A stretch of DNA of 64,000 bases from positions 26,606 through 90,605 of the forward strand of contig CAVRCL010000009.1 of assembly GCA_963719555.1 (NCBI GenBank), given 5' to 3'. Shown piece after piece: positions 40,547 to 59,040 of this stretch. Made by a program: the position numbers and the translations under genes. The DNA is from Thermoanaerobaculia bacterium. Its GTDB lineage: Bacteria > Acidobacteriota > Thermoanaerobaculia > Multivoradales > JAGPDF01. Positions within the stretch are counted from its first letter, which is position 1. Every line of letters starts with the position of its first letter. Below the pieces are notes generated by a model. The model was given only the letters and a program-made list of their open reading frames with translations. It had not been told where the DNA came from and ran no database searches.

Positions 40547-41316
40547 ATGCAACGCTCGACGCCGTACCTCCTCCTGTGCCTTTTCGCGGTCTGCTTCGCC
40601 GCCATGCCCGGAGAGGCCTCGAGCCGCCTGTATGCGCTCGAACCTGATCTTTTTCGACGGCTTCGAATCGGGTGGCTCGGCGGTCTGGAGCACCCAGAAT
40701 CTCAGCGGCTTCGTTCGCGACTCCTGGACAGGACTCACTCTGGCTGGCGTTTCACTGGCCATTTCGAGTCCGGTGCGCGGCACGACGAGCGACGCCGCGG
40801 GACGCTACGCCCTGGTCGATCTAGCCCCGGCAGCGGCGGTGACGCCACTCGCCACCCTGCCGGCGAGCTCCCTCGCTACCGGGACCGGCCCGATCGCGCT
40901 CGGCGGTGGATCGAAGAGCTGCGATCTCTTCGTGATGTCCGTCGCCGACGTCCAGCGCCAGTACACCGTGCTCGGCATCACCCCGACGGCCGGTCTGGCG
41001 ATCCTCATCGCCGACCTCCGCCGCCCCGACGACAGTCCGCTCACCGGGATTCCGCTCGCCGACATCTCCCTGAATGACGCCGGCGCGACGCCGATCGGTC
41101 AGGGCCCCTACTTTCTAAGGCGCCGGAGGAGACGTCGACAACTCCCTCTTCGTTTCGACCGCCTTCGGCGGTCGCGCCCGCGTCGCCTACCTCAACGTCC
41201 CGATTACGCTGGCCACCCTCGCCGTCGTCTCCGCCGAACCCAACGTCAGCGCCAGCGCCACCTTCACTCCGATCGCGAGCGGTGCCAACGATCTCGTGCT
41301 GGGTGGGGTCGATTGA
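40547..41316 (+). CDS. Exported hypothetical protein with N-proximal IFFDGFESG motif (frameshifted)
   Basis: Signal peptide MQRSTPYLLLCLFAVCFAAMPGEA; LIFFDGFESGGSAVWS then carboxypeptidase-regulatory-like SGFVRDSWTG..LAGVSLAI..TTSDAAGRY; tail ends DLVLGGVD*. Confidence 0.6.
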
Positions 41317-42306: not shown

Positions 42307-42412
42307 CCAAAAGGGTATCAAGGAATAGGGCGGAAACTGTCCTCTACGGGCTCTAGCCTTCTCCCTGGCGCGGAACTTCGTCCGCGTCACCCCGCGCGCG
42401 GAGAGCTTGCTC

Positions 42413-43057
42413 ATGGAGTCCGTTTCCCACCTCTGGATCTTCTTCGGCCTGGTCTTCGGCGTGGTGCTGCTCCCCGGGCTCGACATGGCCTGCGTCCTTG
42501 CGACCGCGCTCGGCGGCGGCCGGCGAGCCGGCTTCGCGGCGGTCGGGGGGATTCTCACCGCCGCCTTCGTGCACGTGGCGATCGGAGGGGCGGGTCTCGC
42601 CGCCATCCTCGGCGTGCTGCCGGCGCTCTACAACGCTCTACTCGTCGTCGGCGCCGCTTATGTCGCCTGGATCGGCGTCGCCCTCCTGAGGAGCGGCGCG
42701 ATGTTCGAGACCGGTGGCGCGCGCTCTCTCTACGGGATCGCGATGCCGACCGCTTATCGGCGGGGTCTCTTGACGAACCTCCTCAACCCCAAGGCTTACG
42801 CTTTCATGCTGGCGATCTTCCCGCAGTTCGTTCACAAGGAGAGCGGGCCGATCTGGATGCAGGCGGTCGTCCTCGGCGCGATCATCGTTGCGACGCAGGT
42901 GGCGGTCTACGGCACGGTCGTCCTCGCGGCGACCCGGGCGCGCGGCTGGCTCGCGGCCCGCCCGCGCGCCCTCGCGGTCGTCGGCCGCACCGTGGGCGCC
43001 CTGCTCGTCGCCGTCGCCTTCTTCTCGGCGCTCGAGGGGTGGCGAGGGCTCGGCTAG
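42413..43057 (+). CDS. LysE/RhtB family exporter
   Basis: LLPGLDM, GAAYVAWIG, GLLTNLLNPKA; hydrophobic; divergent from the WYL regulator. Confidence 0.9.
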   Translation: MESVSHLWIFFGLVFGVVLLPGLDMACVLATALGGGRRAGFAAVGGILTAAFVHVAIGGAGLAAILGVLPALYNALLVVGAAYVAWIGVALLRSGAMFETGGARSLYGIAMPTAYRRGLLTNLLNPKAYAFMLAIFPQFVHKESGPIWMQAVVLGAIIVATQVAVYGTVVLAATRARGWLAARPRALAVVGRTVGALLVAVAFFSALEGWRGLG

Positions 43058-43121: not shown

Positions 43122-43559
43122 CATGGGCTGGATCGAGAGAGGTTGGGAAGAGCTGTCCAAGCGATTACAGGTTGCGCTCGAGCCCTACCGCGAGGGCGAG
43201 GAGCTCGTCGGCGTCGTGCATGCGAATCAGCCGGGGCTCTTCTCGACGCAGCTGTACGCGATCGGCGTGACGCCGTCCCGGCTCATCCTCCTGCCGCTCG
43301 ATCGGCGGCACGCCGCGACGGGTGAGCCGGTCCTGTTGCGGGCGGGCGACATCGAGGCCTCGGCAATCTGGGGCTGGGGAGGGTCGATGGGCGACTGGAT
43401 CTCGGGGAGCTCGGCCAAGAGCTCCGCTTCACCGCCGGCGGGCGGAAGTACAAGCTGATGGTCCTGGGCGGCAATCTCCTCGAAGACGCCCTCTCCGGCC
43501 CCAGCCAACGCTCGGGCCTCCAGGCCCTCCTCGAGTTCCTCCTCGACGCCAAGCGCTGA
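43122..43559 (+). CDS. Hypothetical protein (frameshift near 43420)
   Basis: SD GGGGAAG then MGWIERGWEELSKRLQ..YAIGVTPSRLILLPLDRR; shifted tail ELRFTAGGRKYKLMVLGG..LLDAKR*. Confidence 0.65.
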
Positions 43560-43643
43560 CCTCGGGGTCGGTCGCGTCGTCGGACTTCTCCTGCTCCTCG
43601 TCGCCCTCTTCTCGGCGCTTGAAGGAGGAAGAGACTCGGCTGA
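43560..43643 (+). repeat. Diverged second copy of the lysE-like 3' end (matches 42970-43057)
   Basis: Translates LGVGRVVGLLLLLVALFSALEG-(W)KRLG* versus LAVVGRTVGALLVAVAFFSALEGWRGLG*; several differences are synonymous. Confidence 0.8.
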
Positions 43644-43656
43644 CAGTTTTCGTGCC

Positions 43657-44328
43657 CTAGTCGCGCGTCCAGCCAGCGTGAGCGCGTTCCTCCGCGGTCC
43701 ACGAGGAGATGGGCAGTGGAGCCGGGTCGAGCGGTTTGGAGTGTGGCAAGCCCGCCTTCCTGGCGGTCGAAAATCGCTCCCACATTCGGCGAATCGTGGC
43801 GAACTCGGGAAACTCAGGATAGCGATCGGCCTGATACCAAGCAGCGTCTCCGACAAAGGTGTTCGACTTCGCGCTTGGAACGGAATTGCCGACGGATGTG
43901 AGCTCGTAGCGAATCCGAACAAACTCCGGTCCGCTGTCACTTACTAGCATGCGCACTTGTCCACTCGCCTCGATTCGTCGATCGATATCGGCTCGCGAAT
44001 AGGCATAGAGGCGCGAGCCGACGATGTCGTCGAGCCAGGTCGCGAGCTCGTCGGGTGCGAGCTCGGTCGTGACGTGGCTCGTCGGCACAGGATTCGCCCC
44101 GACGAGGTAGGTGCGGGTTTCGAGTCGTCCGTTCCTGTAGAGCTGCGAGACGTAGTACTCGTGTCCGTCCGCAGTGCTCGTCCACTCGAGCACGCAGACC
44201 TCTGGGTCCTGGCTGAAAGTCACTGGACTTGAGTCCTGAGCGAACAGGCTGGGCGGGAGCAGCACCAAGGCGAGGGTCACGAAGCGGGCCAGCCGATGGG
44301 TTCGCTGCGGTGGGCTCGAAGGAATCAC
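43657..44328 (-). CDS. Exported hypothetical protein, apparent paralogue of 58331-58924
   Basis: Intact 223 aa ORF, signal peptide ending SLFA-QD, visibly lower GC than neighbours. Confidence 0.75.
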   Translation of the reverse strand: MIPSSPPQRTHRLARFVTLALVLLPPSLFAQDSSPVTFSQDPEVCVLEWTSTADGHEYYVSQLYRNGRLETRTYLVGANPVPTSHVTTELAPDELATWLDDIVGSRLYAYSRADIDRRIEASGQVRMLVSDSGPEFVRIRYELTSVGNSVPSAKSNTFVGDAAWYQADRYPEFPEFATIRRMWERFSTARKAGLPHSKPLDPAPLPISSWTAEERAHAGWTRD

Positions 44329-44499
44329 GGCAAGAGTCTAGTCCTCTTGACCAGCTGTTCGGACTTCACCGGCTCCCCCAAAAGGCCACGAAATCGCCTG
44401 GTGACCTGAGTGACGCCAGATAGAGCCGGTCGTTTGCGTCCTTCTTGAAAGAACGGTTCTCGGGCTCTCAAAGGACCCTGAAGTCCGTCGCTGCGGGAG

Positions 44500-44525
44500 T
44501 TGACGTGGAGTGTCATTAATGGCAC
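44500..44525 (+). promoter_or_regulatory. -35-like hexamer and palindromic operator of hicAB-like operon
   Basis: TTGACG (44500-44505) followed by near-perfect palindrome GTGTCATT-AATGGCAC (44510-44525) overlapping the probable ATG. Confidence 0.55.
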
Positions 44526-44797
44526 CATCGATCGAGCAGTACTGCGCGGAGCTTCTGCCGCGGCTGGAAAGGGCGCCCACCAGCGTGACCTTCGCTGAGT
44601 TGCGGCGATTCTGCGTCGCGATCTTCGGGAGGGGCGGCGAGGGACGGCGGGGCAAGGGCAGTCACCTCATCTTTCGGACTGGACTGCCGGAGCTGCCGAT
44701 CGTGAACATTCAGCCGCGCGGGAAGATGGCGAAGCCTTACCAGTGTCGGCAGGTGGCCCAGGCCGCGCAAGCGCTGCTCTCCAAGATCAAGGAGTGA
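44519..44797 (+). CDS. HicA-like toxin
   Basis: PTSVTFAELRRFC, GKGSHLIF, VNIQPRGKMAKPYQCRQV. Confidence 0.85.
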   Translation: MAPSIEQYCAELLPRLERAPTSVTFAELRRFCVAIFGRGGEGRRGKGSHLIFRTGLPELPIVNIQPRGKMAKPYQCRQVAQAAQALLSKIKE

Positions 44798-44799
44798 AG

Positions 44800-45201
44800 A
44801 TGGAACTTTCCGACCGATACTCCTACCGCGTCTTCTGGTCCGAGGAGGATGGCGAGCATGTCGCGGTTTGCGCGGAGCTGCCGGGTCTCTCGTGGCTCGA
44901 CAAGAAGGCGGAGCGGGCGCTATCGGGAGTGTTGCGGGCGGCGCGGGAGGCGGTCGAGCTGCTGCGCGAGAATGGAGATCCGGTGCCCGAGCCGCTCCTC
45001 GACCGGCGCTACAGTGGCACCTTCAAGGTGCGGATTCCGCCCGAGGTGCACCGCCGGCTCGTGCTCGAGGCCGAAGAGCAGAAGGTCTCGCTCAACCGGC
45101 TCGTTTCCGCCAAGCTCAGCGCTCCGCTCGAACGCGTCGGCGACGCCCGCTTGCGAGAGCCCGTGACGAAGTACCGCGCCCGCACTCGATCCGAGACCTG
45201 A
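44800..45201 (+). CDS. HicB family antitoxin
   Basis: YSYRVFWSEEDGEHVAVCAELPGLSW, YSGTFKVRIPPEVHRRL, VSLNRLV. Confidence 0.92.
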   Translation: MELSDRYSYRVFWSEEDGEHVAVCAELPGLSWLDKKAERALSGVLRAAREAVELLRENGDPVPEPLLDRRYSGTFKVRIPPEVHRRLVLEAEEQKVSLNRLVSAKLSAPLERVGDARLREPVTKYRARTRSET

Positions 45202-45296
45202 CCGGCGATCGCGGTCCCAGTTCTCGAAAACCGCGATGTCTTCGGCGGCACTGAGCAGGCTGAGGCCGTCAGATGGCAGACAGGTAGGATTCACAG

Positions 45297-46557
45297 ATGC
45301 GCTGCGCTGGGATCGTCCTTCGAATCCTATGGCTGGCGCTCCTTTCCGGCGCGCCGGTCCTGGCCCACGGACCGCATCAGCCGGCGGCGCCGGCGCCGCC
45401 GGCGCAGGAGAAGGGCACGCACGGCGCCGCGATCCCGCTGCCCGCCGGCTGGGTCGAAAGCCCGCCCCCGGCGGCTGCCGGGGCGATGGCGCCGGCGCTG
45501 GTCGCCGACGGCGACGGCTTCCTCGCCACCTGGATCGAGCCGCTGGCGCAAGCCGGGCACCGGGTGCGCTTCGCGCGCTGGCAGAGCGGAACCTGGAGCG
45601 CGGCCTCGACGGTGCGAGAGGGAAAGACGCTGTTCGCCAACTGGGCCGACGTCCCCGGAGTCGTGCGCTCGCCCGACGCCGCGCTCTACGCCTGGTGGCT
45701 GGAGAGGTCGGGTCCAGACACCTACGCCTACGATGTGCGGCTGGTGCGCTCGACCGACCAGGGGGCGACGTTCACGGCGCTCGGTGTCCTGCACGAGGAC
45801 CGCTCGGCGGTCGAGCACGGCTTCGTCTCGGCCGTCGCCGAGGAGGGTGGGCGTGCGCTTCTACTACCTCGACGGCCGCGCGACCGCAACCGGCGGGCCG
45901 ATGCAGCTGCGCACGGTCCTCGTCGAAGGGAAGCGCGATCGGCGCCTCCGAGCTCGTCGACGAGAGCGTCTGCGACTGTTGCGCGACCGCCGCGGTGGGG
46001 CTCGCGAGCGGCTCGGCCGTCGCCTATCGCGACCGCACCACAGACGAGATCCGCGACGTCCAGGTCGTCATCCGATCGCACGCAGGCACGCTCGGCGACG
46101 CATGCGCCCGGCAATGACGGCTGGAAGATCGCCGGCTGTCCGGTCAACGGCCCGGCGCTCGCCGCCAATGCCGGCCAGCTTGCGCTCGCCTGGTTCGCTG
46201 CGCCCGGCGACCGGCCGCGCATGTCCGTCGCGCGCTCGGCCGACGGCGGCGCGACCTGGGGCAAGCCGCAACTCCTAGGTGCCGGCAAACCCATGGGTCA
46301 GCTTGCGGTCGCGGCGCTGGGCAGACGCCTTCGCCCTCTCCTGGCTCGAGGCGATCGCCGGCGGCTCCGAGCTCCGACTGGCGCGGCTCGACGAAAGAGG
46401 CAAGCTCGAACCGTCGCTGGCCATCGCCCGCACCGGTGCCGGGCGCAGCGCCGGCATCCCGCGCCTCGCCGCCGCCGCGAATCGCCTGGCGCTGCTGTGG
46501 GTGCCTGCCGGGAAGTCGAGCGGGGCGAGCCTGCGGTTCGCGACCCAGGCGCCGTAG
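45297..46557 (+). CDS. Exported sialidase/BNR-repeat beta-propeller protein with CxCC motif (frameshifted)
   Basis: FANWADVP, RSTDQGATF and RSADGGATW Asp-boxes, EHGFVS, VCDCCAT, AYRDRT..EIRD, WKIAGCPVNGP. Confidence 0.8.
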
Positions 46558-46660
46558 GTCGCGGAGTCTTCAGTTTCCGGCATGCCCCGCGGGAGGGACG
46601 ACTTTCCGGGTGCCGAAGTGGGGCCTTCGCCATAGAGTCTCCCGCCAGGGAGACCCCATC

Positions 46661-48034
46661 ATGTTTCGAATTCCCGTCGTGATCACCGGTCTGGGGCCGA
46701 TCTCCGCCATCGGCTGCGGCAGGCGGCCGTTCTGGGAGGCGCTGCTTGCCGGACGGCATGGCTTCGGTCCGATCACGCTCTGCGATGCGGATGCGTCGCC
46801 GGCGAAGATCGCCGCCGAGGTCAAGGGGTTCGACCTCGACGACTATGTCGAGAGCGGCAAGGTGCTCGCGCGCCACACGCCGCGGCCGTCGCAGATGGCG
46901 CTCGCGGCGGCGCTGCTGGCGCTGCACGACGCCGAGCTCGACGTCAACCTGATGTCGGAGTCGATGGGGCTCTACGTCGGCACCTCGCTGGCGAATCTGG
47001 AGACCACCTTCGCGATGCGCGACCGCTGGAAAGCCACCGGCGTGCTGCCGGCGCACGCCGCCTTCCAGACCTTTCCGCATTCGATCGCCTGCCAGGTCTC
47101 GGCTCTTCTCGACCTGCGAGGCCCGCTGCACACAACCACCTCGGGCTGCAATTCCGGCGTCGATGCTCTCGGTCTCGCCCTGCGCCAGGTGCAGTCCGGC
47201 ACCGTCGACGCGATGCTCGTCATCGGCGTCGACTGCGAGGTGGTCCCCGAGATCCTCGCCGCCTTGAACGCCGCGAGCGCCCTCACGACCCGTTTCAACG
47301 ACGATCCCGGCCGGGCTTCGCGGCCGTTCGACCGGGCTCGCGACGGCAACGTCCTGGGCGAGGGTGCCGGGGCGTTGGTTGTCGAGTCCGAGCCCCACGC
47401 CCGCGCTCGCAAGGCGCGGATCTATGCGCGATTCCAGGGCTACGCGACGGCGAGCGCCGGCCGCGCCCGCCAGTACAGCCACGACCAGCCCGAGCTCGAT
47501 CTGCGGCCCGCGGTGCGGGCGCTGCGGGGCGCGATCGCCGATGCCTCCTGGACCGCCGAGCAGGTCGACACGGTCAACGCCAACGGCTCGAGCTCGCGGC
47601 TCTACGACGTGGTCGAGGCGCAGGCGCTCGCCAGGGTCTTCGGCGAGCGTTTCCCGACGATCCCGGTGACTTCGATCAAGTCGATGCTGGGCCAGCACGG
47701 CGCCGGCTCGAGCGCGCTCCAGGCGATCGCCTCCTGCCTGACGCTGCGCCGCGGCCAGGTGCCCCCCACCGTGAACCACGAAGACCCCGAGCCGGACTGC
47801 GGACCGATCCGCGTCGTGACCGCGCCGCTCGGCAGCGGACCGCAGCGCGTCCTCATGCATGCCATCGGATTCGGCGGCTTCTACTACTCGGCGGCGGCGT
47901 TCGAGGCGATGCCGGCGGGCGAGAGCTCGCGCACCGGCCTCCTGCAGACGACCTGGAGCGAAGAGGTCGAGAAGTTCCGTCCGCGCCCGCGCTTCGACGA
48001 GCCGGTGCCCCCGTGGGAGCGTCCGCCGGGCTGA
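46661..48034 (+). CDS. FabF-like beta-ketoacyl synthase with atypical active site
   Basis: VVITGLGPISAIG, TSGCNSG, ASRPFDRARDGNVLGEGAG, VTSIKSMLG, PPTVN, IGFGG. Confidence 0.85.
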   Translation: MFRIPVVITGLGPISAIGCGRRPFWEALLAGRHGFGPITLCDADASPAKIAAEVKGFDLDDYVESGKVLARHTPRPSQMALAAALLALHDAELDVNLMSESMGLYVGTSLANLETTFAMRDRWKATGVLPAHAAFQTFPHSIACQVSALLDLRGPLHTTTSGCNSGVDALGLALRQVQSGTVDAMLVIGVDCEVVPEILAALNAASALTTRFNDDPGRASRPFDRARDGNVLGEGAGALVVESEPHARARKARIYARFQGYATASAGRARQYSHDQPELDLRPAVRALRGAIADASWTAEQVDTVNANGSSSRLYDVVEAQALARVFGERFPTIPVTSIKSMLGQHGAGSSALQAIASCLTLRRGQVPPTVNHEDPEPDCGPIRVVTAPLGSGPQRVLMHAIGFGGFYYSAAAFEAMPAGESSRTGLLQTTWSEEVEKFRPRPRFDEPVPPWERPPG

Positions 48035-48130
48035 GACCGCCCCGCCGCGTCGCCTTTCTGCTCCTTCTGCCGTTCTGGAGAGAAAGGTCCGGGCCTGCCG
48101 CTCGGCCTCGAGTTCTCCGGGAGGAGCCCC

Positions 48131-49000
48131 ATGCACTGCCAGGACCGCACGCCCGCTCGCTTCAAGCTGCACCCGATCGCTGCCACGGCGCTCCTCGGAG
48201 CGGTTCTCGGTCTCACTGCCCTGCCAGCGGCAGCGCAGGAGGTGATCGAGGGCAAAGCGATCCTTGCCCACCCCGCAGGAAAGGCGGTCGTCGACGCCGG
48301 GAGGCTTCTGAAGGCAGGCAAGCTCGCCGAGGTCAAGAGAGCGAGCGTGAAGGAGGCGCGCGAGGCGTGGGCGGCGTCGTCCGAGGCCGACCAGCGTGCG
48401 GAGGCCGCCGAGGCGGCAGCGAGCGCTCCCGACCTCACGACACTCGAAGCGGAGATCGCTCGGAGCGGCATCCTGACGAACTACGGCGATTCCGCCATGC
48501 TGCGCACCGCAGCGGCGGATGGCAACAGCGCCATCATGGCCTTCCTCGTTCTCGAAGGGGGCAAGTGGAAGGTCACTGCCGGCCCGAAGACGGTCGACAC
48601 CACGCCGGTCGAGGAGACGGCGCCGCCGATCGCGGGAGCCGCGGTGCTTGAGCACGAGATCGGCAAGGCCGCGCTCGCCTTCGCCAAGGAGATCGCTGCC
48701 GGCAAGTTCGCCGCCGCCGACGCGTTGCGCAGCGGTCCGGCAAGAGCCAAGCGGGCCACCGAGTCGGCGAAGGAGCGCCAGGAGAGCGACGCCTACTGGA
48801 AGTCGACCCTGCCGGCGCCCGCCGTTCTCGCTGACCAGATCCGCTCGGGCGGCAAGATCACATTCGTCGGCGAGAAGGCCTACCTGAGCGTCAGTCAGAA
48901 CGTGGTCACCCCGAACGCCGATGGCAGCACCAGCTACTCCTCGAGCTCGATGTCGGTGCCGTTCGAGCTCGACAACGGCAAGTGGCGCGTCGCCGACTAG
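48131..49000 (+). CDS. Exported hypothetical protein with two tandem homologous domains
   Basis: SD GGAGGAG; signal peptide to AAA-QE; halves end LVLEGGKWKV and FELDNGKWRV. Confidence 0.75.
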   Translation: MHCQDRTPARFKLHPIAATALLGAVLGLTALPAAAQEVIEGKAILAHPAGKAVVDAGRLLKAGKLAEVKRASVKEAREAWAASSEADQRAEAAEAAASAPDLTTLEAEIARSGILTNYGDSAMLRTAAADGNSAIMAFLVLEGGKWKVTAGPKTVDTTPVEETAPPIAGAAVLEHEIGKAALAFAKEIAAGKFAAADALRSGPARAKRATESAKERQESDAYWKSTLPAPAVLADQIRSGGKITFVGEKAYLSVSQNVVTPNADGSTSYSSSSMSVPFELDNGKWRVAD

Positions 49001-49064
49001 ACGATCTGCCGTCGCCGCGAGGCGAAGGAAGCTCCGGTCGCCCCGGTGCCGGGCGGAGGAGGGG

Positions 49065-49090
49065 TGAAACGTCCGGCGCTGCGTTGCGTA
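49065..49090 (+). promoter_or_regulatory. ECF sigma factor promoter (SigW-like consensus)
   Basis: TGAAAC-N16-CGTA ending 23 nt before the pspC-like ATG, followed by SD GGAGGAG. Confidence 0.6.
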
Positions 49091-49113
49091 GGATCTCCAG
49101 GGAGGAGACGGTC

Positions 49114-49359
49114 ATGGCCGAGGTCCGATTGCGACGTTCGCGGGAGCACAAGGTGGTGGGTGGGGTGATCGGCGGTTTCGCGGCTTACTTCGACCGCGAT
49201 CCAGGGTTGCTCCGGGTCCTCTACGTGCTGATCTCCATCGTTTCGGCGGCCTTTCCAGGCATCTTCGTCTATCTCATCCTCTGGGCGGTGATTCCACTCG
49301 CCGAGGCGCCGAGGGCAGCGGAGAGCCGTGCCGCATCGGATCCGATCGCGGTCCCGTAG
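49114..49359 (+). CDS. PspC domain membrane protein
   Basis: RLRRSREHKVVGGVIGGFAAYFDRDPGLLRVLYV...YLILWAVIP. Confidence 0.9.
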   Translation: MAEVRLRRSREHKVVGGVIGGFAAYFDRDPGLLRVLYVLISIVSAAFPGIFVYLILWAVIPLAEAPRAAESRAASDPIAVP

Positions 49360-49387
49360 ACTCAACTCGTTGCTCGAGGAGACTTCG

Positions 49388-49903
49388 ATGTCCGGAACGG
49401 CCCGATCCTTCCGTCAACTCTCGTCCAGGCAGTTCTTCGCCTTGGCGCTCCTTTCCGCGCTCTTTGCCGGGCCCTTCGCCGGGCCCCTCGCCGCGGCGGA
49501 AGAGAGCCAGGCCGACGATCGCGCGGCGGTGGTCAAGGTGGTGACCGACGCCTACGTCGACGGGGTGCACAACTTCCGCGATCCGGCGGCGATGCGCCGC
49601 GGATTCCATCCCGACTTCGAGATGCTCTCGCTGCGCGACGGCAAGCTCGCCCGGTTGACGCTCGACAACTGGATCAAAGGGATGGAGGCGCGGAACCTGA
49701 AGGAGCCGCCGCCGAAGGCCGCGCCCGAGGCGCCGCGCGAGACCACGGCGAAGTTCGTGACGGTGGAGATCACCGGCACGGCCGCGACCTGCAAGGTCGA
49801 GCTCTCTCGAGGCGGGAAGCAGATCTTCACCGACTTCCTGGCGCTCTACAAGTTCGCCGACGGCTGGAAGATCGTCTCCAAGACCTTCTACCGCCACCCG
49901 TAG
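49388..49903 (+). CDS. Exported NTF2-like (lumazine-binding-like) protein
   Basis: Signal peptide; AYVDG, MRRGFHPD, VEITGTAATCKVE, FTDFLALYKFADGWKIVSKTF. Confidence 0.82.
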   Translation: MSGTARSFRQLSSRQFFALALLSALFAGPFAGPLAAAEESQADDRAAVVKVVTDAYVDGVHNFRDPAAMRRGFHPDFEMLSLRDGKLARLTLDNWIKGMEARNLKEPPPKAAPEAPRETTAKFVTVEITGTAATCKVELSRGGKQIFTDFLALYKFADGWKIVSKTFYRHP

Positions 49904-49988
49904 CGACAGACCGACGGCACGGCAGCGGGTTTCCGCTCCCGGGACCGGTCCACTGGCAATCCGGCCCTCGACCGTTACAATCACCCGA

Positions 49989-51872
49989 ATGGTGGATACG
50001 ACCGGACGGCCGGAAGCGGGTTGGGCACGGGGCGGGAGATCAGGGTCGCTCGGCCCGGCTGCCGCAGCACGATGGAGTTGCCTGCTCGCCGGGGGGCTCC
50101 TCGCTCTCGCCTGCAGCGGCAATCCGGCGCCTCAGAGCCCGGTCGCCGCGGCGGCGACTCCGGTTGCGGCAGGAGCGACCTCGCCCCCGCCGTTGCCACC
50201 CCTCACCCCGGAGTCTGCCGCTCCTTCGGCGCCCGGCGCGACGGCTGGCGTAGGTTCCGCAGCCCAGGGAGTCGAGGAGCCGGGCTCGCGAGAGCTGCAG
50301 CCAGGTGATGAAGTCGAGGCAGAGGTGGCCGATTCGATCGATTCGAACGCTTCGAGCGAGTCGAACGAGGCCGCCACCGCGAGCGTGGCGGACGATCCGG
50401 AGACGTTGTTGCACGAGGCGATGGACGCTTACGCCTCTGCCGGGGTCTCCTGGGATCGCGGCGCCGCGGACGAGGCCATCGCGGCGCTCGATCGCGCCTA
50501 CGAGAAGATGACCCGGATCGCCCTCGAACCCTCTCCCACCGGCGATGCCGTGCTGTCGAAGGAGAAAGAGAACCTGCGACGGCTGATCTCGCGGCGGATC
50601 GTCGAGATCTACGCCGCCCGCCAGACCTCCCTCGGCGATACCCAGGCGTCGATTCCGCGCGACATGAATCCGGACGTCGCGCGCGAGATCGCGAGCTTCC
50701 AGGGCCGTGAGCGGACTTTCTTCCTCGAGGCCTACCGCCGCTCCGGTCTCTACCGGCCGATGATCGTCGCGCAACTGCAAGAGGCGGGGCTCCCCGAGCA
50801 GTTGAGCTGGCTGCCTCTGGTCGAGAGCGGTTTCAAGGACCGCGCTCTTTCCTCCGCCCGCGCCCTGGGCCTCTGGCAGTTCATCGCCTCGACCGGATAT
50901 CGCTACGGTCTCGACCGCTCGAACTGGGTGGACGAGCGCATGGACCCGGAGAAGTCGACCAAGGCGGCGCTCGCCTATCTCACCGCGCTGCACGACCTGT
51001 TCGGCGACTGGCTGACGGCGCTCGCGGCCTACAACTGCGGCGAGCACAACGTCCTGCGGCAGATCAACAACTCCAAGGTCAGCTATCTCGATCAGTTCTG
51101 GGACCTCTATTCGCGCCTGCCGCACGAGACGCGGCGCTACGTGCCGCGCTTCCTCGCCACCCTGGCCATTCTCGAGAATCCGGCCCAGTACGGCTTCGAG
51201 CTCCCCGAGCCCTACGCGCCGGTCCCCTACGAGACGGCCGAGCTCGCCCGGGCGACCCAGCTCGAACAGCTCGACCGCGCCCTGGCCCTCGAAGCGGGAA
51301 CCCTGGCGCGCCTGAACCCGGAGCTGCGCCGGAATGCGACGCCGAAAGAACCTTACCGGCTCAAGATCCCCCTTGGCGCAGGGCCGGCACTTCTCGCCAG
51401 CCTCGAAACGCTGCCGAAGTGGGATCCACCGCAGGTGGAGAGCACGCAGGTCGAGGGTTCGACTTATCGCGTGCGCTCGGGCGACACCCTGTCGGGGATC
51501 GCCGCGCGCCATCGCACCAGTGTTTCGGCGATCAAGTCGGCCAACAACCTGCGCAGCGACCGCCTTGCGCTCGGCCAGCGCCTGCGGATTCCGGGCCGGG
51601 GCGGGAGGGCTCCTGTCGCTGCCGCCTCCACGGTGGTCGCGCGTGCGGCCCCCGTGGGGAGCCCTGCTGCAGCGGTGGTCCCGGCTCCCACGAGCGCCGG
51701 CGAAGTTCGCCACCAGGTGCGTTCCGGCGACAGTCTCTGGCTGCTCGCCTCGCGCTACGGCACCACGGTTGAGCGCATCCGCGCCGACAATGGCTTGCGC
51801 GGCAACGCGCTCTTGCCCGGGCAGGTCCTGGTGATCCGGAGCCCGACGTCCGGGTCCGCCGGGGGGGCCTGA
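49989..51872 (+). CDS. MltD-like lytic transglycosylase lipoprotein with LysM domains
   Basis: Lipobox LA-C; LPLVESGF, ALGLWQFI, DERMDPEKST, ALAAYNCG, ETRRYVPR; LysM YRVRSGDTLSGIA and HQVRSGDSLWLLA. Confidence 0.92.
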   Translation: MVDTTGRPEAGWARGGRSGSLGPAAAARWSCLLAGGLLALACSGNPAPQSPVAAAATPVAAGATSPPPLPPLTPESAAPSAPGATAGVGSAAQGVEEPGSRELQPGDEVEAEVADSIDSNASSESNEAATASVADDPETLLHEAMDAYASAGVSWDRGAADEAIAALDRAYEKMTRIALEPSPTGDAVLSKEKENLRRLISRRIVEIYAARQTSLGDTQASIPRDMNPDVAREIASFQGRERTFFLEAYRRSGLYRPMIVAQLQEAGLPEQLSWLPLVESGFKDRALSSARALGLWQFIASTGYRYGLDRSNWVDERMDPEKSTKAALAYLTALHDLFGDWLTALAAYNCGEHNVLRQINNSKVSYLDQFWDLYSRLPHETRRYVPRFLATLAILENPAQYGFELPEPYAPVPYETAELARATQLEQLDRALALEAGTLARLNPELRRNATPKEPYRLKIPLGAGPALLASLETLPKWDPPQVESTQVEGSTYRVRSGDTLSGIAARHRTSVSAIKSANNLRSDRLALGQRLRIPGRGGRAPVAAASTVVARAAPVGSPAAAVVPAPTSAGEVRHQVRSGDSLWLLASRYGTTVERIRADNGLRGNALLPGQVLVIRSPTSGSAGGA

Positions 51873-51905
51873 CCCGGCTTCCGCCTGCGATAGACTCGAC
51901 CGGCC

Positions 51906-52735
51906 GTGCAGGCCCCCCTCCTCTTCGAGGAACTCCCAGCTTCCCCTTCTCCCTTGCGGGCCGCAGTCCTGGGCTCGGGGAGCGGAGGAAACGCCGTCGT
52001 CGTCGAATCGGCCGGCTTCCGCGTCCTGATCGACGCCGGTTTCTCCTGCAAGGAGCTCGAGCGCCGCATGCGGCTGGTCGGGATCGATCCCGTCGACGAT
52101 CCGGGCGGTGCTCCTCACCCACGAGCACGAGGACCACATCAAGGGGATCGACCGTTTCGCGCGCAAGCATCGGCTGCCGGTCTACCTCACGGCGGGGACG
52201 ATGCTCGGCACCGCTCCTCGGCGACGAGGTCACCCCCCGCTCGGTGCGGATCGAATCGGGCCGGCCTTTCGAGGTCGGCCCTTTTGCTGTCGAGGCGTTC
52301 TCGATTCCGCACGACGCGCGCGAGCCGGTCGGCTTCGTCCTTCAGGACGGGCACGGCCGGCGATTGGGCCTCGCGGGCGACATCGGCTGCCGCACCCAGC
52401 TCGCCTGGGGCCGGCTCGCCGACCTCGACTGCCTGATGCTCGAGACCAATCACGACCTCGAGATGTTGCGCAGCGGCCCCTATCCCTGGGCGCTCAAGCA
52501 GCGCGTCGCCGGGCGCCACGGGCATCTCTCCAACCGCGAGGCCGCGGACGGCCTGCCGGAGCTGCTTGCCGAGCGTCTGCGCTTCGTCGTGCTCTACCAT
52601 CTGTCGCGCACCAACAACATGCCGGCGCTCGCGGCGGCAGAGGTCGCCGAAACGCTCGCCCGCGAAGGTTCCGAGGCCGAGATCGTGATCAGCAGTCAGT
52701 TCGAACCTTCGTCGTGGCTGGAGGTGGGGGCGTGA
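51906..52735 (+). CDS. MBL-fold metallo-hydrolase, YycJ/WalJ-like (frameshifted)
   Basis: LGSGSGGN, LIDAG, THEHEDH, IPHDA, LETNHD, YPWALKQRV, GHLSN, HLSRTNN. Confidence 0.88.
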
Positions 52736-52789
52736 GTGGGGAAGCGGGCGTCCCGCCGGAGAGTCGCGCAGCAGAAAGGCTGGTGAGGT

Positions 52790-53071
52790 ATGCGGGCTAA
52801 GGTGACGGTCTATCCGCGGCGCGAGATTCTCGATCCGCAAGGCAAGGCGATCCGCACCGCGCTGCAGCGCGTCGGCTTCGCGGAGGTCGCGCGAGGTGCG
52901 CGCCGGCAAGAGTTTCGAGATCGACCTCGGCGCTCTCGATCCCCAGGCGGCCGCTGACCGCGTCGCCGCGATGTGCGAGCAGCTGCTCGCCAATACCGTG
53001 GTCGAGGAGTACGCAATCGAGATTTTGGGCGAGGCGCCGGCTGGCGCCGAGCGTTCCGGAGGAACCGCGTC

Positions 53072-53075
<4 letters not shown>
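52790..53075 (+). CDS. purS: FGAM synthase subunit PurS (frameshift near 52895)
   Basis: MRAKVTVYPRREILDPQGKAI; shifted VRAGKSFEI..MCEQLLANTVVEEY; stop overlaps purQ ATG. Confidence 0.92.
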
Positions 53076-53782
<707 letters not shown>

Positions 53783-53813
53783 CCGCCCGCGCCCGGATGA
53801 GCCGCCCCCCGCG

Positions 53814-56086
<2,273 letters not shown>

Positions 56087-56133
56087 CAACGGCGGCACAG
56101 CAGGGGAGTCGAGGGAGGCGGGGCGAACGGACC

Positions 56134-57537
56134 ATGTGCGGCATCTTCGGCATCGACAACGCGGACGACGCGGCGAATCTCGCCTATCTCGGCCTCTACG
56201 CGCTGCAGCATCGCGGCCAGGAGAGCTCCGGCATCTGCGCCTGGGACGGCGAGCGCATGCACGTCGAGCGCGGCATGGGGCACGTCGCGGAGATCTTCCC
56301 GGACAAGGTGCTGGCGCGCCTCCCGGGGCGGCGGGCGATGGGGCACACGCGCTACTCGACCGCCGGCTCGTCGGTGGTCGCCAACGCCCAGCCGATCGTG
56401 GTCAAGACCTCGATGGGGCCGGTCGGCATCGTGCACAACGGCAACCTCACCAACGCCGCCGCGATCCGCGCCCAGCTCGAACAGGGCGGTTCGATCTTCC
56501 AGACCACCAGCGACACCGAAGTCATCCTGCATCTCATGGCGCGCAATCCGCGCGCCGATGTCGTCGAGTCGCTGATGGTGGCGCTCTCGGAGGTCGAAGG
56601 GCGCCTATTCGCTCCTTCTGATTACCGACGGTTGCCTGATCGCGGCGCGCGATCCGCACGGCTTCCGGCCGCTCGCGATCGCCGAGTTCGAACGGCTTCC
56701 ACTGCTTCGCCTCGGAATCGTGCGCCTTCGACCTGCTGGGGGCGCGAAAGCTCCGCGAGCTCGAGCCCGGGCGAGGTCGCCGTGGCGAGGAACGGCGGGC
56801 TCGAGTCGTTCCGCCTGGCGCGAGAAGGTCGCTCCGGCGCGCTGCCTGTTCGAACACGTCTACTTCGCTCGTCCCGACAGCGTGGTCTTCGGCGACTCGG
56901 TAGCGGAGATTCGCCGCCGGCTGGGCGCCCAGCTGGCGCGCGAGGCGCCGGCCGCCGCCGACATCGTCGTGCCGGTGCCCGACAGCGGCCTCTACGCGGC
57001 GTTCGGCTACAGCCGCGAGTCGGGCCTGCCGTTCGAGCTCGGGATGACCCGCAACCACTACGTCGGCCGGACGTTCATCGAGCCCAAGCAGTCGATCCGC
57101 AACTTCGGCGTCAAGGTGAAGCTCAACCCGGTGCGCGGAGATCATCGCCGGCCAGCGGGTCGTGCTGATCGACGACTCGATCGTGCGCGGCACGACCTCG
57201 CGCAAGATCGTGCGCATGATGCGCGAGGCCGGCGCGGCCGAGGTCCACCTGCGCATCTCCTCGCCGCCGACCGCGCTGGCCCTGCTACTACGGCATCGAC
57301 ACCCCGCGCCGCACCGAGCTCATCGCGGCGCAGCAGTCGGTCGAGGAGATCCGCGCCTTCGTCGAAGCCGACTCGCTGGGTTACCTCTCCCTCGAAGGGC
57401 TGCGTCGGCTGCATGGGCGGCGCCAAGGCGAGCTACTGCACCGCCTGCTGGAGCGGCGACTATCCGCGTCCCCATCTCCGCCCAGCGACCGCCGCCAGAG
57501 CGAGCTCTTCCCCATCCGCGCGGAAGAGGAGTCGTAG
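56134..57537 (+). CDS. purF: Amidophosphoribosyltransferase (frameshifted)
   Basis: [66 protein letters not shown]. Confidence 0.96.
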
Positions 57538-57613
57538 CGCTAGACGCGGCGATTGCCTGCGATCCAGCGCGAGGCATCGCGGGTGCGGACGGCTGCGAAC
57601 TTGCTCGGCGGGA

Positions 57614-57868
57614 TCAGTAGTGGAAGCGGCACTGGATTACGATGATCTCTTCGCCCTCGATGCGATACACCAGGCGGTGCTCGCGATTGATGCGCCGCGA
57701 CCAACAGCCGGCGAGGTCATGTCTGAGCGATTCGGGCTTTCCGATACCGGCGAAGGGCGTGGCGCGAATGGAGTCGAGCAGAGAGCGGATGCGACCAACA
57801 ACCTTGGGATTAGTCTCTTTCCAGAACGCAACATCACGTGCCGCGCTCTCGGTGAAGCGTATTTTCAA
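57614..57868 (-). CDS. YoeB/Txe family toxin
   Basis: [31 protein letters not shown]...QCRFHY. Confidence 0.95.
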
Positions 57869-58113
57869 AGATCGACCTCGATCGTCTTGCCTTCGGCGGC
57901 CTCCTTCAAGCTCTGCGAAAGCGCGGCGCGGTTCTCTGCGGTCGATGTCAGGTAGGCCGTTTCATCCATGCTCTGCCATTCTGCGCCGGGCACCAGCGCG
58001 AACTTGCGCCCATCCGCCAGCGTGACGATGACGGTCTCTTCGCGTTCGATGACCGCATCCAGGATCTCGTCAGTCTTGGCGCGGAACTCTTTCAGCGAAA
58101 CGGCAGTGGTCAT
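57865..58113 (-). CDS. YefM/Phd family antitoxin
   Basis: MTTAVSLKEFRAKTDEILDAV, VIVT, EWQSMDETAYL, NRAALSQSL; 4-nt overlap with toxin. Confidence 0.92.
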   Translation of the reverse strand: MTTAVSLKEFRAKTDEILDAVIEREETVIVTLADGRKFALVPGAEWQSMDETAYLTSTAENRAALSQSLKEAAEGKTIEVDL

Positions 58114-58189
58114 GGCTGGTACTCCAGTGCAGGCGATTCTACTCCCGGCCGGTGGAGAGCTGAAGCAAGACGATCCGCCGCCGACGGTC

Positions 58190-58219
58190 GCGCCGAGGCG
58201 AGCTACTGCGCCGCCTGCT
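58190..58219 (+). repeat. purF duplicate fragment A (matches 57420-57449)
   Basis: GCGCCGAGGCGAGCTACTGCGCCGCCTGCT vs GCGCCAAGGCGAGCTACTGCACCGCCTGCT, 28/30 identical. Confidence 0.9.
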
Positions 58220-58330
58220 TCCAAGCGCCAGGCTGTGTCGCATGAGATGGCGCTTACCCTGAGACTGGTATCGGCTTGATGCAGACCTGGTTCAGGTCGC
58301 CTGCAACGAAGTGGTGCGAGAGGAAGACGA

Positions 58331-58924
58331 ATGAGCAGTCGCGTCTCAACCCTAGCCGCAGTGGTGATTCTCATCGCAGTCAAGGCTTGGGGTCTTCCCG
58401 GCCCGGTCCCTGCTGGCCCCGGAGCATCGCCGGGCAGCTTGTACACATTCCCAGAGGATGACAAACCCGTAGTCGTCATGACCTCGAAGGGCACCATGGT
58501 TCCGATGGATCTCTCGTTCACGCTCTACGCTTCCGGAACGGCGGTGATCGAGAACTCAATTCGCGAAGGCTCTGAGGAGGTTGTTCTCCCTCTCGAAGAG
58601 CGCGAAGCAATCTTGCGCGACATCGTCGATGGAGATCTTCTGAACTATGACGCCGCAGCTCTCTCGCGGGAGCAAGATCGTATTTCCGGGCTCCACAATG
58701 TCGGAGACTCCCCCAACAGCGACCTTGCAGCGTTCGTCGTCAGTATGAGAATCCTGCGGGACGACGGCCGAGGCGCTCCCATGGTGGAGAAGGCGGCGAC
58801 AGTTCACATCTACGGGGCGAGCCGGCTCGCGAAGGAATTTCCCTCCATACGCGCCTACCAGGCCCTGGCCGACCTCGAGAAGATATTCCGCAACCAACTC
58901 TCCCGCACCGAGATTGCGAAATGA
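58331..58924 (+). CDS. Exported hypothetical protein, apparent paralogue of 43657-44328
   Basis: Intact 197 aa ORF, SD GAGG, N-terminal hydrophobic signal ending AWG, visibly lower GC. Confidence 0.78.
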   Translation: MSSRVSTLAAVVILIAVKAWGLPGPVPAGPGASPGSLYTFPEDDKPVVVMTSKGTMVPMDLSFTLYASGTAVIENSIREGSEEVVLPLEEREAILRDIVDGDLLNYDAAALSREQDRISGLHNVGDSPNSDLAAFVVSMRILRDDGRGAPMVEKAATVHIYGASRLAKEFPSIRAYQALADLEKIFRNQLSRTEIAK

Positions 58925-58948
58925 GGCGTTCTCTCTCTTACATATTCT

Positions 58949-59040
58949 CCTGCTGGAGCGGCGACTACCGCGTCCCCATCTCCGCCACCGACCGCCGCCA
59001 GAGCCTCCTCTTCCCCATCCGCGCGGAAGAGGAGTCGTAG
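58949..59040 (+). repeat. purF duplicate fragment B including stop codon (matches 57444-57537)
   Basis: 92 nt encoding [29 protein letters not shown]; differs from the gene copy by 4 substitutions and two 1-nt indels. Confidence 0.95.

Follow-up and report, generated by a model that had tools for sequence, protein, structure and literature searches.

Orphan genes of an exported protein family, elsewhere paired with a putative secreted zinc protease, in strain-variable islets of a Thermoanaerobaculia genome

The serralysins are secreted metzincins, and their inhibitors, AprI/Inh, are exported proteins encoded by a gene adjacent to that of the protease. A comparable arrangement recurs in a family of small exported proteins that is represented by two genes, referred to here as A and B, in a stretch of 64,000 nucleotides (the window) from the genome of a Thermoanaerobaculia bacterium (phylum Acidobacteriota; assembly GCA_963719555.1, contig CAVRCL010000009.1, positions 26,606 to 90,605). 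In this assembly, A and B are orphans, and on balance they probably act on their own, either as blockers of proteases or in immunity.

The closest parallel is found in Tannerella forsythia, where, according to the passages of Ksiazek et al. (2022; PMC9890683) used here, the lipoprotein genes of the potempins overlap or abut the downstream genes of the KLIKK peptidases, which are inhibited by the potempins. In both systems, the gene of a small exported protein is located immediately upstream of that of a secreted protease with a C-terminal sorting tag, and orphan copies are also mentioned in the same passages. The blocking of the active-site cleft was shown for the potempins, and is only predicted for the family of A and B. 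As described in that source, the potempins are beta-barrels of 98-132 residues with wedge loops, whereas the domain of the present family has approximately 165 residues, a mixed alpha/beta order (in a low-confidence prediction), and a near-invariant Asp as its predicted contact with the zinc. The phyla also differ, and the search of the PDB sequences with the family profile matched no potempin at E <= 10 (the best match, E = 0.025, is with a protein designed de novo, and is uninformative). The adjacent protease gene, finally, is found beside relatives of A and B (21 of 23 and 48 of 69 cases, see below), but not beside A and B themselves.

A second parallel is the pro-domain of fragilysin (proBFT-3), in which, in the account given in the relevant part of PMC9514063, the pro-segment of an HExxHxxGxxH protease contributes an Asp that binds the catalytic zinc. 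A segment of similar size would cover the cleft in the family of A and B, with an Asp predicted at the zinc, although the blocker of fragilysin is part of the same chain, whereas here it would be the product of a separate, translationally coupled gene, and homology between the two was not detected by sequence. The Mtz-Tim system of Listeria monocytogenes, as outlined in the sections used of Boichis et al. (2021; PMC8235301), also pairs a secreted metzincin with an adjacent exported partner, the TIMP-like Tim, which is cleaved by the protease; the PDB sequence search found no similarity between this system and the family of A and B. Operon-encoded exported protease blockers are a known kind of system. 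Neither the family nor its protease clade seems to have been described, given that the literature search found nothing specific on either.

The family of A, B, and C and its operon with a putative protease

Gene A encodes an N-terminal signal-like segment, a single family domain (approximately residues 31-195), and a C-terminal extension of 30 residues, which is conserved and specific to the A subfamily. This extension (window positions 43657-43750) is rich in Pro and Trp, and is nearly invariant in all seven sequences of the subfamily. Gene B has a hydrophobic N-terminal signal or anchor segment and a single family domain; in both cases, the signal peptide was identified by reading the sequence, rather than by a predictor. 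Six close full-length homologues of A were found (62-83% identity, one of them labelled Thermoanaerobaculia), together with eight of B (76-92%). A third paralogue, C, which was found with the profile of B on contig 1 of the same genome, has 367 residues, an N-terminus resembling that of a lipoprotein, and two copies of the domain in tandem.

The family is extensive. The profile search, which covered 1.84 billion representative proteins, recovered 1005 clusters at E <= 1e-3, including 478 at E <= 1e-10 and 17 at E <= 1e-30. Most of the 150 clusters listed have 185-230 residues, some with two matched stretches and one with three, and a lipobox-like N-terminus is present in 30 of the 180 proteins collected. 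The distribution of the family in the Acidobacteriota is patchy, with matches at E <= 1e-5 in at least 7 of the 401 genomes sampled, for each of which eight candidates were scored. Neither A nor B matches any Pfam, NCBIfam, or PADLOC model, and none of 50 sampled representatives of the family passed a Pfam threshold. An initial sequence-only reading of the window had recognised an unnamed family here and had proposed the search for further copies and their neighbourhoods, which yielded these clusters and the recurrent operon described below. That reading had also taken the family to be lineage-specific and fast-diverging, and neither attribute is retained, given the 1005 clusters and the presence of the operon in both the Acidobacteriota and the Pseudomonadota, on the one hand, and, on the other, the ratios of nonsynonymous to synonymous substitution rates (dN/dS) of 0.43, 0.17, and 0.12 among the orthologues of A in the window's genome and two genomes of the same genus (G308 and G304), which show that A is under purifying selection.

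A number of results connect the family with DUF6438 (PF20033), on which no paper was found. Matches below the threshold (14.6 and 20.1 bits, with a cut-off of 30 bits) were obtained in 2 of the 50 representatives, and the protein-language-model look-alikes of C and of a relative of B (P0014) in the ESM Atlas include DUF6438 proteins, with scores of 0.90 and 0.87. In hhalign, the family alignment of 124 rows matched 12 DUF6438 sequences from the Acidobacteriota with a probability of 83.5% (P = 8.3e-6) over 85 columns, which take in the hairpin and the helix as well as the strand that bears the Asp. This points to a remote superfamily link rather than membership, because A, B, and C have no match with PF20033 even at E <= 10, as is the case for the whole genome of the window, and because the family lacks the Cys-x-Gly-x-Cys-Pro motif of the DUF6438 members sampled.

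In other genomes, approximately 10 kb was inspected around each of 11 family genes, and the family gene preceded, in several cases, a gene of 300-390 codons that belongs to no Pfam family, and in G005 (two loci) and G045, the end of the first gene overlaps the start of the second by 4 nt. The downstream proteins are mutually homologous. In addition to a signal peptide, they have HELGHC..GL.H as an invariant segment and, beyond it, a conserved Met, and most of them terminate in an F-x-x-G-F-E-S-G-D-T-S-x-W tail. Among the 14 proteins read, the zinc motif is canonical (HExxHxxGxxH) in four, one residue longer (HExxHxxxGxxH) in eight, and lost in two, while the Met (M254) is invariant in five rows and nearly so in all 14, and can be equated with the Met-turn by position only. 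These proteins are here termed metzincin-like proteases, a cautious naming that reflects both the best match with Peptidase_M10 of Pfam, which reached only 17.8 bits (E = 0.0032, cut-off 24) in one of three proteases tested, and the lack of any match among the PDB sequences at E <= 1.

The association is regular. In 301 genomes of the class Thermoanaerobaculia, the protease profile matched 27 rows in 14 genomes, corresponding to 23 distinct genes or fragments, of which 21 are immediately preceded by a co-oriented family gene. The remaining two are C-terminal fragments, one of which belongs to the genome of the window. The species-representative genomes yielded 76 protease loci with organism names, some shared with the previous set, in the Thermoanaerobaculia, other Acidobacteriota, Nitrosomonas (among others, N. 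halophila Nm1 and N. mobilis), Wenzhouxiangella, Aquimonas voraii, and other Lysobacterales. Seven of these loci have too little upstream DNA; of the other 69, each with 600 nt or more, 48 have a co-oriented family gene just upstream, including the loci of N. halophila Nm1, N. mobilis, Wenzhouxiangella sp. 15190, and A. voraii.

The cognate partners are also tied to A and B themselves. A profile built from the A group alone matches the partners in seven loci at E <= 1e-5 (best 6.2e-16), and one built from the B group alone matches those in two loci (best 9.3e-22, in L112). Extra copies of the family gene adjoin the protease in G189, G253, L109, L111, and L112. No fusion of partner and protease was found among 181 collected proteins with the pattern HExxHxxGxxH/D, which misses the variant with one additional residue.

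The C-terminal tail, in the form F-x-x-G-F-E-S-G-D-T-S-x-W...P, is present on nearly all the proteases of loci L058-L063, L067, and L075-L092, as well as on a protein of 443 residues (L018), and a similar string is found in the window near position 40650. In L061 (G010:C42), the pair adjoins a RepA_C plasmid replication gene and a fragment of a DDE transposase, and in L064 (G539), a degraded pair adjoins a DDE transposase, neighbours that suggest that the operon of partner and protease may itself be mobile.

Predicted complex and the weighing of the explanations

The complex was predicted for one cognate pair (G005, contig 86), with a median interface score (ipSAE) of 0.77 (0.81, 0.77, and 0.54 in the three runs), against 0.00 for the best of three controls. 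Of the solved complexes, 116 of 157 attain the pass mark of this score, as do 2 of 215 mismatched pairs, a calibration that is only roughly valid for the setup employed, with its custom alignments and added zinc ion. The partner has a predicted local distance difference test score (pLDDT) of 78 or more, and 43% or more of the contacts are common to the runs. On the protease, the predicted interface includes residues 126, 129, 130, 133, 139, and 140, in the HELGH..H segment, residues 256-260, after the conserved Met, and part of the C-terminal domain, and on the partner, it is centred on residues 64-71 and 139-147. In the model, residue D142 of the partner contacts H129, E130, and H133 of the protease. 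This is the most conserved position of the family (Asp in 121 of 133 aligned rows), with an Asp in A, in B, and in the N-terminal domain of C, and an Asn in the C-terminal domain of C. The model, as a prediction, supports the binding of the partner to the protease.

According to the explanation proposed here, A, B, and C are exported members of an unnamed family of domains of approximately 165 residues, remotely related to DUF6438, the genes of which usually overlap by 4 nt the start of the gene of a metzincin-like protease (HExxHx(2-3)GxxH, a downstream Met, and a C-terminal tail). The partner would span the cleft at the protease's active site, with its near-invariant Asp placed at the catalytic zinc, that is, an “aspartate switch” supplied in trans, and may keep the enzyme in a latent state within the envelope or shield its producer, in the manner of the potempins and AprI/Inh. 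The genes A and B are orphan single-gene cassettes, located downstream of lysE and inside a displaced purF tail, respectively, that are probably kept under purifying selection and most likely act as stand-alone blockers of proteases or as immunity proteins, with the neighbouring toxin-antitoxin (TA) pairs being independent cargo. The sequence-only reading had offered immunity, inhibitor, or surface proteins as examples, and the first two of these options fit the protease operon and the complex model.

Several results weigh against this explanation. The window contains no protease of this clade beside A or B, none was found in the neighbourhood of C, and the sole protease match in the genome is a C-terminal fragment without a catalytic domain (contig 3, positions 244690-245073). 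The assembly itself (3.54 Mb in 13 contigs) is 59% complete by marker genes, with many frameshifts, so that a protease gene could have been missed. In the other genomes, no partner was found at E <= 1e-3 in 21 of the 69 protease loci, although a relaxed search recovered six weaker matches (E < 1e-3) in the upstream open reading frame. Two protease copies that lack HExxH (L079 in G281:C15 and L080 in G181:C53) nevertheless retain the upstream family gene, and the canonical DUF6438 genes have an HExxH neighbour in none of 12 loci. The complex model refers to a single pair from another genome, rather than to A or B, and the AlphaFold2 models of A and B, which were based on shallow family alignments, are poor (pLDDT of 41.4 and 50.3, respectively), with a mixed alpha/beta order at low confidence.

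The frame breaks of the assembly are also visible in the window, where purF (56134-57540) changes frame approximately seven times and purL (53814-56086) at least once, which, together with the marker completeness of the 13-contig assembly, points to indel errors of the assembly, rather than pseudogenes. In L079 and L080, the sequence R-G-L-G-L replaces HExxH, and the C-terminal tail is kept, so these copies may represent a pseudo-protease with its partner.

The retention of the partner beside the copies without HExxH fits a binding role better than the strict inhibition of catalysis, and also favours the most serious rival of the blocker explanation, in which the family would be a folding, secretion, or anchoring helper (a chaperone or a pro-domain acting in trans) with no lasting inhibition, and A and B would be leftovers or would serve other exported proteins. 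This is a rather unlikely account, although the operon linkage supports it as well, not all members of the family seem to be anchored at the surface, and metzincin pro-domains serve as chaperones in addition to being inhibitors. For proBFT-3, the latency role is described in the part of PMC9514063 that deals with it. Arrays and selected orphans would nevertheless be rare for helpers, and the predicted interface puts the most conserved residue of the family over the zinc site.

Less likely still is a function of A and B unrelated to proteases, as generic periplasmic or surface binding modules of a DUF6438-like superfamily, some branches of which would have been recruited to the operon. The isolation of A, B, and C from any protease gene, the 12 DUF6438 loci, and the conserved C-terminal extension peculiar to A are compatible with this alternative, but the profiles of A alone and B alone match the cognate partners (as detailed above), and both proteins keep the Asp that is predicted at the zinc site.

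If the blocker explanation is correct, it would provide a testable function for an unannotated family of approximately 1000 clusters and for an unmodelled clade of secreted zinc proteases, the hosts of which are soil and sediment Acidobacteriota, ammonia oxidisers (Nitrosomonas), and proteolytic Gammaproteobacteria. It would also extend the short list of operon-encoded metalloprotease blockers known in bacteria by a new scaffold, probably not a barrel, and provide an example of pro-domain-like latency control exerted from a separate gene. With orphan copies in the hot spots, it also becomes conceivable that protease immunity is carried as accessory cargo. A more far-reaching version, in which attack and defence by proteases follow a toxin-immunity-like logic in at least two phyla, and the orphan cassettes immunise their hosts against the proteases of neighbouring strains, as the equivalent, for proteases, of orphan immunity genes, is speculative, and deserves only limited credence. 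The cultured carriers of the pair, namely N. halophila Nm1, A. voraii DSM 16957, and Wenzhouxiangella sp. 15190, make tests possible.

Insertion hot spots, toxin-antitoxin neighbours, and displaced gene tails

The two genes are located in stretches of lower guanine plus cytosine content (approximately 0.60, against approximately 0.70 in their surroundings and some 70% in the window overall), each divergent from a type II TA operon (Table 1), that is, the HicA-like/HicB (44510-45201) and YefM/YoeB (57614-58113) pairs, both formed by small, adjacent, co-oriented genes. The YoeB, YefM, and HicB proteins pass their Pfam cut-offs, and HicA falls under its own.

Table 1. Positions of A, B, and the neighbouring features in the window.
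Feature	Positions	Strand	Remarks
LysE-type translocator gene	42407-43057	+	Pfam LysE, E = 9.6e-24
lysE 3' end	42980-43038	+	Repeat with 43567-43625
111-aa gene	43123-43458		Between the two lysE tail copies; no Pfam family
Displaced lysE tail	43567-43625	+	59 nt, 73%; adjoins 3' end of A
Gene A	43657-44328	-	223 aa, GTG start; open frame without interruption
HicA-like toxin gene	44510-44797	+	Pfam HicA_toxin, E = 0.0017, 18.9 bits, under cut-off of 27; divergent from A
HicB antitoxin gene	44800-45201	+	Pfam HicB, E = 1.2e-14
purF 3' end	57420-57537	+	Functional tail with stop codon
YoeB toxin gene	57614-57868	-	Pfam YoeB_toxin, E = 1.2e-31
YefM/Phd antitoxin gene	57865-58113	-	Pfam PhdYeFM_antitox, E = 1e-12; divergent from B
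Displaced purF tail, piece 1	58190-58219	+	30 nt, 93% identical to 57420-57449
Gene B	58331-58924	+	197 aa; open frame without interruption
Displaced purF tail, piece 2	58949-59040	+	58985-59040 versus 57482-57537: 56 nt, 93%

Both sites are variable among the 12 genomes of the same genus that were compared. The gap between lysE and a BNR-like gene is empty in G310, and contains HicAB alone in G307, HicAB without A in G237, G301, and G303 (with the 111-aa gene as well in G237), A and HicAB without the 111-aa gene in G304, and, in G308, the 111-aa gene, A, an extra 1.5 kb, and HicAB; A is present in G304 and G308 only. The content of the purF end was read in eight genomes (G301, G302, G305, and G310 fall outside this set), being empty in G309, G307, G221, and G306, and occupied by YefM-YoeB alone in G303. 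Three others carry unrelated inserts of 1.0-1.6 kb, that is, a secreted propeller-repeat protein of 443 residues in G237, a helix-turn-helix protein with a 182-aa protein in G308, and an addiction-module antitoxin-like gene in G304. Gene B was not found in any of these 12 genomes, and the search of the species-representative genomes with the alignment of B found no relative. The genes A and B are thus accessory cargo in low-GC islets at strain-variable hot spots, as the sequence-only reading had anticipated in describing a mobile cargo.

The meaningful link with the TA pairs implied by that reading is not supported. The exported proteins and their TA neighbours are cassettes that occupy the same hot spots independently of each other, because HicAB is found without A in four sister loci (G237, G301, G303, and G307), and YefM-YoeB without B in G303. 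It is therefore very improbable that each exported protein and its adjacent TA pair form a functional module of three genes, even though A and B are both back-to-back with such a pair, and a further orphan, the two-domain family gene of locus L065 (G237:C98), is convergent with a MazE-PIN pair, given that each of the three TA pairs is of a different family, that A itself is restricted to two of the sister genomes, and that the purF site carries other cargo in three of them.

The 3' ends of both purF and lysE are repeated, as had been noted from the sequence. The cassette of B (approximately 58220-58948) splits the displaced purF tail, and is flanked on both sides by the hexamer CCTGCT, a direct repeat of 6 bp. 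The second piece of this tail is 88-93% identical to the purF tails of the sister genomes, and in G303, the TA cassette is not followed by a second purF tail. Neither a recombinase gene nor inverted ends were seen around B. The insertion routes considered include an integrase-type event with attL and attR sites, a transposon with a target duplication of 6 bp, and the recombinational repair of a disrupted purF. At the other site, the single lysE tail of G304 directly abuts A and matches both copies of the window, which represents the undisturbed state. The label “PH-like”, which had been considered for the 111-aa gene, was dropped when Pfam returned no match.

The relationship between A and B

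The pairwise comparison of A and B is at the level of chance, with a best BLASTP match of E = 7.6 and a Smith-Waterman score of 35, against 31.4 +/- 5.3 in shuffled sequences, 220 of 1000 of which reach 35 (z = 0.7). The homology can be regarded as established by transitivity. The C-terminal domain of C is 46% identical to B (E = 6e-40), and C also matches A, with E = 5e-5 for its N-terminal domain and E = 0.029, over 178 residues, for the C-terminal one. Single-domain relatives are matched by the hidden Markov models of both the A group alone and the B group alone (Z = 1e6), such as P0040 (1.3e-6 and 1.5e-8, respectively) and P0053 (6.8e-6 and 3.6e-7), as well as P0041, P0112, and P0066, and the protease partner of locus L104 is matched by both profiles (1.7e-9 and 3.6e-6). 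As C, these single-domain proteins, and a colinear alignment bridge the two genes, A and B are true distant paralogues.

The contrary view, that they are unrelated and that their likeness is due to chance between small proteins of similar composition, draws on the null pairwise statistics and the direct hhalign probability of just 18%, and is hardly credible, given the several independent bridges and the colinear full-length alignment.

Much of what the sequence-only reading had drawn from this pair is borne out, including the distant paralogy, the lower GC content, and the divergent TA operons. Of the checks it had proposed, the structure prediction and fold search gave the low-confidence models already mentioned and, when the model of B (pLDDT 50) was aligned by VIA-align with all the PDB representatives, a best Z of 4.1 and no clear match. 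The profile-profile comparison by hhalign returned a single colinear alignment of the A and B groups over 143 columns (A30-181 and B32-181) with P = 0.0013, although at the low probability given above. The register of this alignment is the one that had been drawn by eye, and in an alignment of 16 rows that includes relatives from the sister genomes, the sequences are colinear, with the motifs listed by eye in register.

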